Source: Escherichia phage EAWsc9
Reading direction: 5' to 3' (one strand)
Sequence record: PQ341120.1
Length of the DNA stretch: 64,000 nt
Positions 3,541 through 38,901 of this stretch are shown here, one piece after another. The first letter of the stretch is position 1, and every line of letters begins with the position of its first letter. The position numbers and the translations under genes were made by a program. The notes under the pieces were generated by a model, which worked only from the letters and a program-made list of their open reading frames with translations, was not told the DNA's origin and did no database searches.

Positions 3541-4121
3541 TATTCACCACAAAATTCGTTAATGTTTTCCCAGTTCAATTTGTCTAAACTACGCTTAGGC
3601 ACATTGAACACCTCAATTCCTGCATTCTTCAGGATATCATCCCAACCAGGAATATTCTTATCATACGTTTCACAGTAAACCAATTTCTTGATTCCTGATT
3701 GAGAAATTGCCTTTGCACAGTCAGGGCAAGGGGAAAGCGTCACATACATAGTAGCGCCTTCAATTGACGAACCCATTCTTGCTGCAAACAGAATTGCATT
3801 AAGCTCAGCATGGATTTCGTTGTTCTTTGACCATGCAGAATGGGCTTCGCGATGGGCTTTCGCCAATACAAAACGGTCAACCTTACTGAATCTCACACAT
3901 TCTGGCTTGTGACCGGGGACGAGAACAGGTTTAGGTTTATTCAGTAACCAACCTTGCTCTTCCGCATGCTCGCAACAGTTGACCCCACCTGCAGGGGAAC
4001 CATTATACCCTGTAGAAATAATGCGTCCATTCTTTTCAATAACAGCTCCCACTTTCCAGGAGCAACATTTGGATTCTTGAGATACAAGGTATGCGATTTG
4101 CAGAACAGTAGTTGGTTTCAT
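3540..4121 (-). CDS. cd: dCMP deaminase
   Basis: 193 aa; zinc-binding cytidine/dCMP deaminase motifs (CAE...PCxxC); same length as T4 Cd. Confidence 0.9.
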   Translation of the reverse strand: MKPTTVLQIAYLVSQESKCCSWKVGAVIEKNGRIISTGYNGSPAGGVNCCEHAEEQGWLLNKPKPVLVPGHKPECVRFSKVDRFVLAKAHREAHSAWSKNNEIHAELNAILFAARMGSSIEGATMYVTLSPCPDCAKAISQSGIKKLVYCETYDKNIPGWDDILKNAGIEVFNVPKRSLDKLNWENINEFCGE

Positions 4122-4457
4122 TTACATCACCACGAGATAATTGGTTTTAATAGTTTCAACACGATATAATTCATGTCGCAATTTAGTAATGCTCTTAACA
4201 TGTGTTGTAATTATACTATCACCGTCGCTGAAGCGTTTTTTCTTATCGTCAAAAATCACCCCAAACATTCGCTCACCAATTTCTACAGGAGCTTCTGTGA
4301 TAACAATCGCATCATAATTACTTGGGTGAATACTTTTAAACAGAGCATCATTCGCAAGCGTTACTTTGATAAATGCAGTTGTTTCTGGGTCCAACTTACG
4401 ATGGTCACCTAAATCATTTTTAAGTGATTCTTTGAAAATATCCATTAAATTCATCAT
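4122..4457 (-). CDS. hypothetical protein, 111 aa
   Basis: track ORF. Confidence 0.55.
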   Translation of the reverse strand: MMNLMDIFKESLKNDLGDHRKLDPETTAFIKVTLANDALFKSIHPSNYDAIVITEAPVEIGERMFGVIFDDKKKRFSDGDSIITTHVKSITKLRHELYRVETIKTNYLVVM

Positions 4458-4699
4458 TGAATATACACTCGCTGCGCTTCAACCAGACCATCAGAACCCA
4501 ATTTCAGTTGGGTAAACTGGTCACCACCTTTTAGAGTAATTTTCGGATTAATGACAATCATAAAACTGCGTGCAGATTCCTGAATAACTTGCAAAGTCGC
4601 AGCAGGGAATCGCTGTGATACGCGGTTAATCATCTCTTGAGCAAATGCCTTCACTTTTTCGTGAAACTCTTCAACAGTAATTGGGGTTTCGCTAAGCAT
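4454..4699 (-). CDS. hypothetical protein, 81 aa
   Basis: track ORF, 4-nt overlap with neighbours. Confidence 0.55.
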   Translation of the reverse strand: MLSETPITVEEFHEKVKAFAQEMINRVSQRFPAATLQVIQESARSFMIVINPKITLKGGDQFTQLKLGSDGLVEAQRVYIQ

Positions 4700-5241
4700 C
4701 AGATTGTCTCCTGTTTAACTTGTTTAACGATAGAAGCTTTTGTGATATCGCCTTTGATAATATAACAATCTTCTGCAGTACCGCGGTTTAACAGGCGCTC
4801 TGCTTCGTCTTCCGCATATTCTTTTGACGTATGACGAGAGTTAATCTCAATCTTGCCATTTTTAACCACGAGCAATTTCCAAACTGATGCAAGTTTTACT
4901 GGCGCAGGTTCAACTTCTGGCTTAACGCCAACTTCTGCCTGAATAAAATATTCGAATTCATCTGACAATGGACCAGCGGAAACAAACATTGCTCCACGAT
5001 GTCTGTTTCCTTCGTCAGATATTTTTGCCAAATCCACAAAATCATTTTCATCAATCAAACGAATCTCACAAACTTTTTTACCGCCGCTAACATTATCAGG
5101 TAAAATCTTAACTTCAAATGGAGTCATACCGATGTATCCGGCAATTTGGTAATTAGCTGCCCAGCCTCCGGCAATAAATTGTTTTTTGGCATTTTCAGAT
5201 ACAAATTTGTAAAACTTACCTTCTTCAAAGAAATCGCTCAT
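4699..5241 (-). CDS. hypothetical protein, 180 aa
   Basis: track ORF. Confidence 0.6.
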   Translation of the reverse strand: MSDFFEEGKFYKFVSENAKKQFIAGGWAANYQIAGYIGMTPFEVKILPDNVSGGKKVCEIRLIDENDFVDLAKISDEGNRHRGAMFVSAGPLSDEFEYFIQAEVGVKPEVEPAPVKLASVWKLLVVKNGKIEINSRHTSKEYAEDEAERLLNRGTAEDCYIIKGDITKASIVKQVKQETI

Positions 5242-35892: not shown

Positions 35893-35912
35893 AAGGACCC
35901 CGACGGGGTCCT
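35893..35912 (-). terminator. rho-independent terminator (hairpin flanked by A/T runs on both sides)
   Basis: GGACCCC-GAC-GGGGTCC. Confidence 0.65.
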
Positions 35913-36009
35913 AGTTTTTATCTATCTTATTACCAATAAACATACCAACAATCACACCTGCGATTGCCGCGAAAATACAAAGCAATGCAAACTCAACTCC
36001 AAAACTCAT
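35911..36009 (-). CDS. 32-aa hydrophobic peptide, translationally coupled to gene 52 (ATGA overlap)
   Basis: MSFGVEFALLCIFAAIAGVIVGMFIGNKIDKN; GGAGG SD inside the gene 52 3' end. Confidence 0.45.
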   Translation of the reverse strand: MSFGVEFALLCIFAAIAGVIVGMFIGNKIDKN

Positions 36010-37385
36010 AGAGCCTCCAAATCATTAAGGTATTCAGTTTTAACGTCAGTTGTCTTCCAGTACTCATGCTCAGCTTTCTTAGCCTTAGCTTCGTCCGCAA
36101 GCTTCTTAGCTTCATCAGAGGTCATATGGTAGATGTTCATTGCCACTAACTTCTCTGCATAATCGCCATATATTTCACTTGCCTGGAGCTCCTCAATCAA
36201 CTTCTTACGAGGTTTCCCCTGGATAACAACCTTACCATCAATCACTTCTTTAATAAAGAAGACTTTCGCGCGGGCCAGTTTAAATGCCGCTTCAGTTTCT
36301 TTAATCTTACTGTCAATTCGCACTTGGACATAAGTCTTACGAACATCAACGAAATCGCGAATCAGGTCAAGCGTGTTGGTGTATTCAGCCAGTTTACCTT
36401 TGTGATTAAGCACAGTTAAGTTCTGGGAGAGCTTCTCAATCAGACCAAAGTCTTTCATGATTTTCTCATGATTCTCTTCTTCAGTGCCATCCAACTTGTA
36501 TTCTTTGCGGAATTTAATCTTAAACCCAAAACCATGCTCGCCACAGTTATCTTTCCAGGTGATAAAACCTTTCTCTTCCAGTGGGTCCAGGATTTTACTT
36601 GTATATTTTTCCAGGTTCCATTGGACCGGGATTTCAGTAATTTCCATTTGAGTCCGGGAAGTCATTTTGTACGTGCCATGAAGTTCATACTTACCAGGCT
36701 CTTCCAGCTCAACAACTTTACCACGGAATTCTGGATATTTTACTTTCGGAGCAACCGGCTCACGACCTTCCACGATAGCTTTAACAGCTTCCTTGACGTC
36801 CTGGAACGAATGAGGAAGGATATCAGTAGCAAAGCCAACAGCAATCCCAGAAGTGGCGTTAAGTAATACAGTAGGAATAACAGGAAGATAAAAAGCAGGA
36901 GGCTTATGTTCTTCATCAGGATGGACCGGAGCATATTCTGTATCCTTAAACAAGTTGTAAAAGTTCTTTGAAACCCTTGCGAATACATAACGAGCTGATG
37001 ATGCTTCTGGCACCATTCTGGAACCAAAGTTGCCTTGCCCATCAAACATGGGGTATTCATTTTTATATGTTGCGACCAAACCAGAAGTTGCTTCTTCCGC
37101 TGATGCTTCGCCATGGTGATAACCATAATCAGCTACACCCCCTGCGATGGATGCAACCTTATGGAATTTATTTTTATCACCACGTGCCAGGTCTAATGCT
37201 CTCGCCATAACAAATCTGTGAACTGGTTTAAAACCATCAATCATGTTTGGGATGGCACGACCTTCCACAGTGTAGATAGCGTATGACAATGCTTCCACAT
37301 CAATAATGTCTTTTAGACTGCGTGGGTTAAGGGTCCCCATGGAATCACTGAACTGTTTGGACATCATACTTAAAACGTCAGACAT
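36006..37385 (-). CDS. 52: DNA topoisomerase II medium subunit gp52
   Basis: 459 aa; RAIPNMIDGFKPV.RFV.ARALDLARG, catalytic-Tyr region and toprim-like blocks match T4 gp52. Confidence 0.95.
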   Translation of the reverse strand: MSDVLSMMSKQFSDSMGTLNPRSLKDIIDVEALSYAIYTVEGRAIPNMIDGFKPVHRFVMARALDLARGDKNKFHKVASIAGGVADYGYHHGEASAEEATSGLVATYKNEYPMFDGQGNFGSRMVPEASSARYVFARVSKNFYNLFKDTEYAPVHPDEEHKPPAFYLPVIPTVLLNATSGIAVGFATDILPHSFQDVKEAVKAIVEGREPVAPKVKYPEFRGKVVELEEPGKYELHGTYKMTSRTQMEITEIPVQWNLEKYTSKILDPLEEKGFITWKDNCGEHGFGFKIKFRKEYKLDGTEEENHEKIMKDFGLIEKLSQNLTVLNHKGKLAEYTNTLDLIRDFVDVRKTYVQVRIDSKIKETEAAFKLARAKVFFIKEVIDGKVVIQGKPRKKLIEELQASEIYGDYAEKLVAMNIYHMTSDEAKKLADEAKAKKAEHEYWKTTDVKTEYLNDLEAL

Positions 37386-37393
37386 ATATCACC

Positions 37394-37534
37394 TTACCAA
37401 ATTAACGAATGTACTGCCATTATAACATCAGAAATAAAAAGCACAACCTGCACTAATGCAAATACAACTCCATAATACAGCGCTACCAATAAGGCAGCAA
37501 GGGCTAACGAGTAGCCCAAGATTTTCTTAATCAT
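37394..37534 (-). CDS. small membrane protein A, 46 aa (MIKKILGYSLALAALLVALYYG...)
   Basis: overlaps upstream ORF B (ATGATTAA); hydrophobic. Confidence 0.45.
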   Translation of the reverse strand: MIKKILGYSLALAALLVALYYGVVFALVQVVLFISDVIMAVHSLIW

Positions 37535-37679
37535 TTTTATCCAATAATTTAAATAGTGTTAAAGTCGCTAATACACCTTGAGCTGTTGACTGCAGAAATA
37601 CTGAAGTTTCTCCAGTTATTAATGTTCCAACAAATAAAAATGACCAACAGAAAAAAGCTACGCCATGAACAAATTTCAT
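37527..37679 (-). CDS. small membrane protein B, 50 aa
   Basis: hairpin plus GAGGAAAAT SD upstream; hydrophobic. Confidence 0.45.
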   Translation of the reverse strand: MKFVHGVAFFCWSFLFVGTLITGETSVFLQSTAQGVLATLTLFKLLDKND

Positions 37680-37680
37680 A

Positions 37681-37735
37681 TTTTCCTCAAGGGCGTCCAA
37701 AGACGCCAGTTAATTTCAGATTATGACGATACCAT
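37681..37735. repeat. copy 1 of about 55-bp repeat R1 (GC hairpin + CTTGAGGAAAAT); copy 2 at 37945..38005
   Basis: near-identical sequence at the two positions. Confidence 0.85.
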
Positions 37736-37789
37736 TACAGCGCTACAGGCAGCAAGGGCTAACGAGTAGCCCAAGATTTTCTTAATCAT
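37721..37789 (-). CDS. 22-aa peptide A' (MIKKILGYSLALAACSAVMVSS), truncated duplicate of A
   Basis: first 13 codons identical to ORF A; looks like a signal peptide with lipobox-like LAAC. Confidence 0.4.
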   Translation of the reverse strand: MIKKILGYSLALAACSAVMVSS

Positions 37790-37944
37790 TTTTTCACGTA
37801 CCGTGCCAGACTTACAATTCCAGAAATAACCCATGCAATAAACATCGCGCCCATGAAAAATGTGCTTGGAGTCCAGACTCCCAAAAAGAAGCAGACTGAA
37901 CAAACCACGGCAATAATAAGTTCAATAAAAGCCAGAATAATCAT
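37786..37944 (-). CDS. small membrane protein B', 52 aa
   Basis: same upstream hairpin/SD module as ORF B; hydrophobic. Confidence 0.45.
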   Translation of the reverse strand: MIILAFIELIIAVVCSVCFFLGVWTPSTFFMGAMFIAWVISGIVSLARYVKK

Positions 37945-38005
37945 ATTTTCCTCAAGGGCGTCCAAAGACGCCAGTTAATTTCAGATTATGACGATGCCAT
38001 TGCAT
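37945..38005. repeat. copy 2 of repeat R1
   Basis: TTTTCCTCAAGGGCGTCCAAAGACGCCAGTTAATTTCAGATTATGACGAT(A/G)CCATT. Confidence 0.85.
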
Positions 38006-38033
38006 CACGTGTTCATTATGGAAATTACTCATA

Positions 38034-38480
38034 TTAATAGCTCTGCAGAATGAATTTAAAGTTATCAGCAAGCATGCGATTCATTTCTGAAAGGGTCTGG
38101 CAATCAGAACTATGCGAGCGAGTGAACGCCATTGCAATTTGACCTTTACCATAACCAGTTGTCAGAGGTTTCATTTTAGAAACTGGGACAAACAGGACTT
38201 CATAGATAACCCCATTGTTCGCCATTGTGCGAGACAGTTGAGAACGTTGTTTGCGGATGTGACTTAATACAGTGTCAAACCCTTGTTGTGAACGTTGGTT
38301 ACCAACATAAAAACGTGCAGCAACAATACGTGATTCGCCTTCACCTTTAACCACGAAATAAAAACCTGGTTGAGTGATAGCTTCTTTAGTCGGACGCCCG
38401 AGATAATTACCATTATGGATGTAAGCAACAGTGGTAGCGCCAGCATTCAGTACGTCACGACGGGTCATGTAAGTAGACAT
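38034..38480 (-). CDS. ndd: Ndd nucleoid disruption protein
   Basis: 148 aa; [70 protein letters not shown] match T4 Ndd. Confidence 0.93.
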
Positions 38481-38511
38481 ATTAATTTCCTCAGTAAGTT
38501 AAAGTTTTGTG

Positions 38512-38556
38512 CTCCAGTGGGGTCATTATACTCTGACCCCAAGAGTTTGTACACTA
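38512..38556 (-). promoter_or_regulatory. T4-type early promoter, -10 in the loop of inverted repeat GGGGTCA...TGACCCC; identical copy at 49725..49767
   Basis: minus-sense GTGTACAAAC ... GAGTATAATG. Confidence 0.6.
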
Positions 38557-38901
38557 TTTTTGAAGTTGTTCTAAAATAAATCCGCTCGTATAAAAGGAAG
38601 CATTATACACCTTATTCAGCGGGGTCAAAGCGCGCTTATAGGTATTACGCAATTCTTTGATAACATTTTCATAACTCACGTAGTAAGCACTATGGTAGTA
38701 ACCTGGCTCCATACTCATACGAAATTTAATGAACCGATAAAAGCCTGTTTCCGGGTCTTGGACGAAAACGAAATCAGCACTCGTCATAACTTTTGGATGT
38801 ACGTCAGGAATCATACTTTGATTGAATGCCTCCGACGCCTCCTGAAGGCTAATCTGTTTAAAGAACATAACTTTAGCATTACCAAAAAATACTTTAGACA
38901 T
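38554..38901 (-). CDS. hypothetical protein, 115 aa
   Basis: track ORF. Confidence 0.55.
   Translation of the reverse strand: MSKVFFGNAKVMFFKQISLQEASEAFNQSMIPDVHPKVMTSADFVFVQDPETGFYRFIKFRMSMEPGYYHSAYYVSYENVIKELRNTYKRALTPLNKVYNASFYTSGFILEQLQK

Follow-up and report, generated by a model that had tools for sequence, protein, structure and literature searches.

A probable two-cassette variant of the stp-ac-52.1 locus in Escherichia phage EAWsc9, with a 52.1::stp scar between two unrelated mini-protein genes

Our analysis of a 64,000-nt stretch of Escherichia phage EAWsc9 (PQ341120.1; this whole stretch is called the window, and window positions are used throughout) suggests that the small genes found between gene 52 and ndd form the known stp-ac-52.1 locus in a two-cassette state, and that this state probably arose through an unequal crossover mediated by microhomology. 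By its sequence the window belongs to a Gaprivervirus, within the VR7/SP18-like T-even group. The whole cluster is encoded on the minus strand and reads ndd–stp–B'–A'–B–A–52, where B, B', A and A', and likewise a repeat called R1, keep the names given to them in an earlier note on this DNA, B being ac and A being 52.1. As judged from gene families and positions, the slot between stp and 52.1 normally holds one gene in T4 and in most relatives, either ac or an unrelated gene of phrog_9347, whereas in the window both are present and the 5' end of 52.1 fused to the 3' end of stp lies between them. The crossover would have taken place between a B'-bearing and an ac-bearing genome and have joined 52.1 of the first, at about codon 15-19, to stp of the second, at about codon 10, with the product stp-B'-[52.1 5' end::stp 3' end scar]-ac-52.1, in which two direct repeats, D1 and D2, would simply be the duplicated stp 3' end and the duplicated 52.1 5' end. 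The two units carry unrelated genes, and therefore such an event would have joined two alleles or genomes rather than copied a segment.

The two cassettes and the scar between them

The earlier note had described two consecutive units with near-identical flanks, and this description holds: a repeat search returned D1 (64 nt, 97% identity, spacing 265) and D2 (47 nt, 100% identity, spacing 255), both as direct repeats. Copy a of D1 (37941-38004, minus strand, like every feature placed below) comprises stp codons 10-26, the stop, a 7-nt spacer with a GAGG Shine-Dalgarno and the ATG of B', and copy b (37676-37739) a non-coding stp 3' fragment, a hairpin (1b), a GAGG Shine-Dalgarno and the ATG of ac. 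Copy a of D2 (37747-37793) consists of the last nucleotides of B' and the first 14 codons of 52.1 and holds hairpin 2a, and copy b (37492-37538) holds hairpin 2b. A 33-nt core, CTGGCGTCTTTGGACGCCCTTGAGGAAAATATG, which spans hairpin, Shine-Dalgarno and ATG, occurs in exactly 2 copies in the 64-kb window (0 expected from 100 shuffles), and the count is still 2 when 3 mismatches are permitted. R1 itself, which had been taken for a stand-alone element, resolves into two parts, the final 50 nt of stp and the ribosome-binding site of the gene that follows, with no promoter in it; its GC hairpin GGCGTC-TTTG-GACGCC encodes the Stp C-terminus GVFGRP, and because stp contains the upstream copy, R1 is mostly coding and not a free-standing intergenic element.

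The spacer between the two cassette genes is made of 52.1 codons 1-14 followed by stp codons 10-26, which match the intact genes at 94-100% identity, and it contains A' (37721-37789), an open reading frame (ORF) of 22 codons that runs through the first 14 codons of 52.1 and then out of frame into the stp fragment. A' follows 52.1 for 43 nt without a difference, lacks the next 5 nt (TATTG), continues with GTAGCG(CTGTA) and switches to stp at ATGG(T/C)ATCGTCATAATCTG. A three-way comparison with 52.1 and stp places the recombination junction, TGCTGCC-T-GTAGCGCTGTAATGG, at 37732-37754; the switch falls inside an imperfect microhomology (GCTGTATTATGG in 52.1 versus GATGCA--ATGG in stp), and the TATTG deletion removes the loop of a further hairpin, hairpin 3. 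A' reads out of the stp frame and ends at a TAA after its 22 codons. In the window the stp fragment has TAA at the equivalent of codon 11 and begins with a stop in the stp frame, so that no Stp C-terminal peptide would be made from it. The non-coding stp fragment of TH40 (~920-975 of its retrieved stretch) keeps an internal ATG (Met10), which gives a potential 17-aa peptide without the N-terminal residues needed for Stp activity. A' matches phrog_3595 over residues 1-17 only (E=0.013) and has no Pfam match, and its tails in three phages (CSAVMVSS, CSAVMTSS and CSDAMASS) vary at 3/8 residues. We therefore classify A' by its composition as a truncated 52.1::stp chimera and not as a full-length gp52.1/DUF7396 protein. 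Where the earlier note saw a diversifying paralogue we find a chimeric remnant, whose equivalent in the JS98-type locus described below has 9 codons and is further deleted in NC-G, and we regard scar ORFs of this kind as decaying remnants, not genes.

The 5-nt deletion and the junction region are common to the window, DCP80 and TH40 (identity to the complete 801-nt query 89% for DCP80 and 94% for TH40), and in these phages they stand beside different B' alleles, the DNA identity of B' among the three being 69-80% and that of the flanks 94-100%. The R1 copies within a genome are 94, 88 and 94% identical, and orthologous copies between genomes 91-97%. Within-genome identity is thus no higher than between-genome identity, and therefore the event is old relative to the divergence of these phages; the recent origin that had been assumed for it does not survive this comparison or the sharing of the scar by phages that are 89-94% identical. 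Concerted evolution and a recent duplication were both rejected because the repeats are no more alike within a genome than between genomes. The window-type scar had 0 matches in IMG/VR and 0 in metagenome contigs, and IMG/VR loci hold a single copy of each flank motif, with the exception of the JS98 contig. Megablast with the scar alone joins its halves wherever they lie nearby, and does not separate true junction carriers.

The first gene of the cluster (37952-38032, 26 aa) can be assigned as stp, by family the activator of the PrrC anticodon nuclease. Its product matches Pfam PF08133 (anticodon nuclease activator; 55.3 bits, cutoff 25, E=4.4e-15) and phrog_6763 (E=2e-19), and its residues 1-11 are identical to T4 Stp; the C-terminal third of T4 Stp is QFYRNNLKTKGVFGRQ, and the window Stp differs there (16 residues). 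The gene is placed directly downstream of ndd and upstream of the ac-slot gene, as in T4, and the VR25 RefSeq record annotates stp at the same position. By blocking type Ic restriction (EcoprrI, EcoR124I), Stp of T4 releases the PrrC anticodon nuclease from its masked state; the N-terminal 18 residues of Stp are the important part, and removal of the last 8 codons leaves an activity that is only moderately lower (PMC3014915). Stp-like sequences were found by tblastn in 969 phage records. The matches include small non-T-even phages (e.g. Enterobacter phage N5822, MW032452.1, and Klebsiella phages of ~49 kb), the longest of these, ~24-25 residues, being in Raoultella phage RP180 (MK737937.1, 76%) and Veterinaerplatzvirus (OZ035786.1, 67%), and in the remaining ones the match, at ~61-83% identity, is limited to the N-terminal 17-19 residues, which are those critical for function. 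These matches suggest that Stp-like anti-restriction peptides may occur outside Straboviridae. With its 26 codons stp is unannotated in most Gaprivervirus records, and the UPEC07 record gives 'Stp' as 52 aa, N-terminally extended and overlapping an ORF called X (see below).

B (37527-37679, 50 aa) we identify by homology and position as the orthologue of T4 ac, the gene of the acridine-sensitivity membrane protein. BLASTP gives 40% identity to T4 Ac over 48 aa (E=7e-9), both proteins match phrog_2501 (E=2.3e-23 for B and 2e-25 for T4 Ac), and the gene is directly upstream of 52.1, with a stop that overlaps the 52.1 start by ATGATTAA, as in T4. The B protein is identical in pEC-M719 and TH40, Ac-family genes are found by tblastn in 279 phage records, and a single-sequence AlphaFold2 model has helices at 2-22 and 26-49 (pLDDT 80). 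T4 Ac renders infection acriflavine-sensitive and has been proposed to be a blocker of AcrAB-TolC (bioRxiv 10.1101/2025.06.30.662393; PMC13250531). A (37394-37534, 46 aa), likewise assigned as the T4 52.1 orthologue, matches PF24129/DUF7396 over residues 1-46 of 46 (75.8 bits, cutoff 27), is identical to T4 gp52.1 at 40/46 residues and lies directly upstream of gene 52. Laboratory growth does not require the whole 52.1-denB segment, and when it is deleted infection no longer stimulates phosphatidylglycerol synthesis (PMC6071114); our literature search found no relevant Ribo-seq or small-protein data for 52.1, and NCBIfam gave no match for any of the peptides. The DCP80 record has no coding sequence (CDS) features for ac and 52.1, and in that of SP18 the stretch from ndd to 52 is devoid of CDS features.

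B' (37786-37944, 52 aa), a predicted two-helix membrane protein, matches phrog_9347 (E=1.7e-19), as does VR7ORF281 of phage VR7; genes of its family are found by tblastn in 87 phage records, and it is 98% identical to the gene of the single-unit phage TH44. The ratio of non-synonymous to synonymous differences (pN/pS) ranges from 0.07 to 0.24 for the N-terminal half of B', where pS reaches 0.61, and is ~0.5 for the C-terminal half, which marks B' as a real gene under purifying selection. Positive selection was considered and set aside, pN/pS being <1 and the few values >1 resting on <=5 substitutions. The selection on B', together with the PHROG matches of B and B' (E<=1e-19), bears out the earlier note in that these ORFs are real small membrane-protein genes, and by hydropathy a membrane location fits B', B and A, not Stp.

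The same note had held the bodies of B and B' to be diverged copies, and here our results point the other way. Compared with each other they give a BLASTP E of 0.18, out of register; alignments of the two families, drawn from several genera, give an hhalign probability of 0.2%; the bodies between the repeats have 47% DNA identity with gaps, which is the level of unrelated sequence; and the two fall in different PHROGs (phrog_2501 and phrog_9347), each with its own orthologues in other phages. The BLASTP and hhalign values and the phrog_9347 membership also rule out B' as a member of the Ac family, and the 'acridine resistance' label under some B' tblastn matches appears to be that of a neighbour, which was confirmed for NC-G only (an Ac-like CDS). 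The single-sequence AlphaFold2 model of B' has helices at 2-22 and 26-51 (pLDDT 84), and as modelled B and B' are architectural analogues with a similar two-helix hairpin layout; with proteins this short, a common origin far back in time is conceivable. Both B' and Ac are retained in several lineages and are therefore presumably not redundant. B', Ac and gp52.1 would be mini-proteins of the inner membrane that are made early and alter envelope or transport functions. The B' alleles fall in two old classes (pS 0.6-0.8) and the neighbouring 52.1 has a pS of ~0.1 in the same phages; therefore exchange of alleles appears to go on by way of the conserved flanks. In SP18 the slot holds a 45-aa member of the VR7ORF281/B' family with a divergent C-terminus (756-894 of its stretch), which, compared with the 55-aa VR7 gene, may have undergone a frameshift. 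In the RefSeq record of JS98, B' is unannotated.

The slot in related phages and a second scar

Maps of the small ORFs between ndd and gene 52 in relatives agree with the earlier note in that unit number and content vary among T-even phages, and the T-even host-interaction locus that it had supposed is the ac/stp locus of T4, there arranged as ndd-stp(26)-ac(51)-52.1(46)-52. The single slot gene is ac in T4, in pEC-M719 (stp-ac-52.1) and in ECML-359 and TH41 (both X-stp-ac-52.1); it is B' in TH44 and UPEC07 (X-stp-B'-52.1) and in the Dhakaviruses MX01 and ABTNLsp5 (stp-B'-52.1), and the 281 subtype in VR7, which shares the layout stp-ORF281-52.1 with VR25. The window, DCP80 and TH40 have stp-B'-A'-stp fragment-ac-52.1. 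More distant genera have no stp, and their arrays are put together from the same set of genes, as in EcS1 (X-Ac-B'-52.1-like), Gravdalen (X-Ac-B'), KLB8 (X-Ac-52.1) and PEi20 (X-B'-43aa-52.1, where the 43-aa gene is possibly Ac-like).

A second and differently built arrangement came to light while variants of hairpin 1 were being listed. In JS98 (NC_010105.1 165464-166923) the order is ndd-X-stp-Ac-like(49 aa)-[52.1 head::stp tail]-B'-52.1-52, and this stretch of JS98 corresponds to 3912-4755 (reverse complement) of an IMG/VR contig. Similar to the window, this locus combines the same two gene families with a 52.1-head::stp-tail scar between them and a duplicated hairpin plus Shine-Dalgarno. 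However, its gene order is the opposite one, with the Ac-like gene first and then B', and its junction is another, 52.1 at ~codon 23 being joined to stp codon 2-3 at the 7-nt microhomology GAGTAAT. Its scar is also more decayed, the 52.1 remnant being ~10% divergent and reduced by a frameshift to an ORF of 9 codons, with another 31 nt of the remnant missing in NC-G, and its stp copies are of two lineages, the intact upstream stp being of the Gaprivervirus type and the fragment of the T4/Dhakavirus type. By megablast JS98 and NC-G carry the arrangement, and IME281, EcWhh-1, Esco_phi_B-01 and UP19 match it in one piece without X, which makes six phages with this scar. A literature search found nothing relevant on stp or ac of JS98, and the JS98-type locus is apparently undescribed. 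The window scar and the JS98-type scar are independent, and therefore the two cassette types were stacked by a 52.1-to-stp join at least twice.

The cluster is bordered upstream by ndd (38034-38480), an ORF for the nucleoid disruption protein that is labelled ndd in all relatives, and downstream by gene 52 (36006-37385), which by its ORF and the annotation of relatives encodes the topoisomerase II medium subunit. X is a 57-aa membrane ORF (phrog_5941; MRHFFAMGYLF...FERLCKMCGIYE) that is variably present between ndd and stp, with a TATGAG repeat at its bounds. It is found at 668-834 of the retrieved UPEC07 stretch and also in JS98, is absent from the window (between 38032 and 38034), and its family provides the first gene after ndd in representatives of Kanagawavirus, Winklervirus, Kagamiyamavirus and Jiaodavirus, all of them without stp. 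On the far side of gene 52, a strongly hydrophobic 32-aa ORF (MSFGVEFALLCIFAAIAGVIVGMFIGNKIDKN, 35911-36009, minus strand), whose start overlaps the gene 52 stop, is a candidate membrane mini-protein; T4 has motA.1 at that position.

Stem-loops and expression signals

Hairpin 1a (GGCGUC-UUUG-GACGCC, 37957-37972) encodes G-V-F-G-R-P of Stp and ends 5 nt upstream of the B' Shine-Dalgarno, and hairpin 1b (37692-37707) is located inside D1 copy b. The 6/6 pairs of hairpin 1 are kept in all 20 distinct versions, in which changes give only G-U pairs, and the centroid of the stem-loop is at -10.8 kcal/mol. Against synonymous recodings hairpin 1 is marginal (44/500 in the window, 7/500 in T4), and the peptide GVFGR itself favours the pairing. 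A role at the RNA level is plausible because loss of the last 8 Stp codons only moderately cuts Stp activity (PMC3014915).

In the intact 52.1 head, codons 6-18 hold hairpin 2b (37501-37517) and hairpin 3 (UGCUGCC-UUAUU-GGUAGCG, 37481-37499), which together span 37481-37517, and hairpin 2a (GGGCUA-CUCGU-UAGCCC, 37756-37772) lies inside D2 copy a. In each of the window, T4 and MX01, 0/500 synonymous recodings of the 52.1 head fold as well, the folding in the window being -19.8 versus -10.2±2.6 kcal/mol for the recodings. Moreover, across 16 distinct sequences 208/208 cells of these hairpins are paired, with compensatory double changes at 2 pairs, and slid controls reach 24-59%. The structure was not significant in the representatives of Kanagawavirus, Winklervirus and Kagamiyamavirus, and marginal in that of Jiaodavirus. 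An Rfam scan of 37000-38600 returned one chance-level miRNA match only; the 52.1-head element is strictly conserved, is not in Rfam, and we found no description of it. Read on the plus strand, hairpin 2 resembles an intrinsic terminator followed by a T-rich run. Inverted repeats of its form, GGGC...GCCC, have been reported from the endpoints of deletions in T4 (Mosig 1998, as cited in PMC2839356).

B' and ac share an identical initiation region, ...GGACGCCCTTGAGGAAAATATG. In stp, A' and 52.1 there is no Shine-Dalgarno and the start abuts or overlaps the preceding stop, stp for instance starting one base after the ndd stop, and because of this the three are probably translationally coupled. As to the overlaps that had been said to join the ORFs of both units, the B/A overlap is indeed ATGATTAA, and that of B'/A' is ATGA only. 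The only minus-strand sigma70-like site near the cluster is 38553-38525(-), just upstream of ndd, and inside the units we found no promoter-like site, no MotA-box and no late promoter. R1 as a promoter/terminator cassette was rejected, there being neither a promoter-like site nor a T-run on the coding strand. The cluster would then be co-transcribed from upstream of ndd, with Stp, B', Ac and gp52.1 made early and A' as a by-product ORF. The duplicated stp tail would bring with it the stem-loop and GAGG-N5-AUG, by which B' and ac would keep identical translation signals, and because this tail carries the initiation region both cassette genes would be fully equipped for expression.

Origin of the two-cassette locus and comparison with known systems

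Several observations weigh against an unequal crossover as the origin of the window locus. A comparison of ndd, stp, 52.1 and gene 52 segment by segment shows its flanks to be mosaic and uninformative, ndd being closest to ac-type phages and 52.1 to the B'-type TH44, with ac identical to that of pEC-M719; there is no clean two-parent pattern in them, and the parental genomes are therefore putative. TH40 switches from 52.1 to stp ~6 nt away from the point used in the window and DCP80, and to explain this one would have to assume repair of a heteroduplex, a conversion at a later time, or several events. The cluster ORFs in this phage are predictions from the sequence. In addition, genes of the Ac and B' families are adjacent without scars in EcS1 and Gravdalen, so that co-occurrence alone does not require a crossover. 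This last point leads to the possibility that B' and ac form an ancestral pair whose repeated flanks are secondary, through gene conversion or homogenisation, which the adjacent Ac and then B' of EcS1 and Gravdalen and the possible Ac-like 43-aa gene after B' in PEi20 would fit. However, no pieces of stp or 52.1 separate the genes in these natural arrays, whereas the window spacer is unmistakably made of 52.1 codons 1-14 and stp codons 10-26, and most Gapriverviruses and Dhakaviruses carry one of the two genes only; we hold an ancestral pair to be very improbable.

To a recent intragenomic tandem duplication of one cassette, with rapid diversification of the B body between unchanged flanks, as the earlier note proposed, we give next to no credence, although the near-identical flanks with their regular 255-265 nt period, the same length of B and B' with the same predicted layout (helix 2-22, turn, helix 26-end), and the faster evolution of the C-terminal half of B' (pN/pS ~0.5) are what it would predict. 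Set against these are the lack of resemblance between B and B' (BLASTP E=0.18, hhalign 0.2%, different PHROGs) and their separate affinities, B being 40% identical to T4 Ac and 100% to a single-unit ac and B' 98% identical to the single-unit TH44 gene. Both families are spread across several genera, the scar is common to phages that are 89-94% identical here, and pN/pS is <1 throughout; at the level of the sequence the model is already refuted. A true tandem gene duplication was likewise discarded, only the 64-nt and 47-nt flanks being homologous and the gene bodies of ~150 nt unrelated.

A further possibility is that the slot is a dedicated swap-in site bordered by hairpins, in which stem-loops 1-3 act as DNA recombination or template-switch signals, similar to PeSL or to integron attC. 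Unlikely as we consider it, it would account for a bracketing structure conserved beyond coding needs (0/500 recodings and 208/208 cells in the 52.1 head, 6/6 pairs in 20 variants of hairpin 1), for a hairpin 2 whose GGGC...GCCC form is the one reported where T4 deletions end (Mosig 1998, as cited in PMC2839356), for B' alleles of very different age between near-identical flanks, and for the positions of the scars, the 5-nt deletion taking out exactly the loop of hairpin 3 and both independent stacking junctions lying just 3' of it. If it were true, T-even phages would have an integron-like site at which Ac, B' and X mini-protein effectors are acquired, exchanged and stacked across genera. A form of it in which hairpin-stalled replication or a structure-specific nuclease promotes recurrent template switching or crossover seems to us no more likely. 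Yet both junctions fall at plain microhomologies between the hairpins and not within them, hairpin 1 is only marginally beyond the constraint of GVFGR (44/500 in the window, 7/500 in T4), and the hairpins are part of transcribed coding sequence, where a role at the RNA level, for example in the stability of the mRNA or in the initiation of translation, accounts for their conservation just as well. Moreover, the decayed scar of NC-G has lost hairpins 2 and 3, the 52.1-head structure is not significant in the more distant genera, and no associated recombinase is evident.

On balance we favour the unequal, microhomology-mediated crossover. The conserved flanks that it left would later have provided the homology for allele swaps, homologous patches of only ~50 bp being enough for recombination in T4 (Singer 1982, as cited in PMC2839356), and could in principle collapse the locus precisely to either single-cassette form. 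On this reading the locus would be a clear case of gene gain in T4-type phages, in which unrelated alternatives for one slot were stacked by an unequal join that left a readable scar, and it is also an instructive yet ordinary example of known T4-like gene shuffling. The 52.1::stp chimera could be used as a cheap survey marker across Straboviridae, and the structured 52.1-head element is a concrete experimental target. As a functional prediction, ac and the phrog_9347 gene would be positionally interchangeable and not redundant, and this is relevant to the current interest in Ac function, that is in acridine/intercalator sensitivity and possibly AcrAB-TolC. Our survey also exposes annotation gaps, with stp and several mini-protein genes missing in many Gaprivervirus and Dhakavirus records.

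Considering known systems, the T4 cluster is like that of the window in gene order, strand, sizes (26, ~50 and 46 codons) and spacing; in both, the stp tail hairpin is followed by GAGGAAAATATG, ac and 52.1 overlap by ATGATTAA, and 52.1 abuts gene 52. The T4 tail hairpin is GGCGTC-TTCG-GACGCC, then GTGAGGAAAATATG, and the window has the loop UUUG in place of the UUCG tetraloop. The window also differs by its extra unit between stp and ac, which consists of B' and the 52.1'::'stp scar. The T4 region is not essential, since the saDelta9 deletion removes it (PMC6071114).

Shuffling by PeSL motifs (PMC2839356; Comeau et al. 2014, PMC4122927) resembles the window in that GC-rich stem-loop motifs bracket small, variable and non-essential ORFs, and in that patches of ~50-bp homology serve for insertion, deletion and replacement and leave chimeric copies of the flanks. 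However, the window repeat has no sigma70-type promoter and no terminator T-run on the coding strand, lies inside the coding sequence of stp and 52.1 and not in intergenic DNA, and is present in 2 copies in 64 kb rather than in many across hyperplastic regions. R1 as a PeSL mobile regulatory cassette was rejected on these promoter, terminator, location and copy-number features. The stacking junctions, too, are unlike PeSL exchanges, being illegitimate joins at microhomology and not homologous ones.

The classical tandem duplications of the T4 rII region arise by illegitimate recombination. Similar to the window, they are head-to-tail arrangements made by an unequal join at short homology, and their repeats then recombine; the window repeats, at 47-64 nt, are near the lower limit for homologous recombination in T4. 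Unlike these duplications, the units of the window carry different and unrelated genes.

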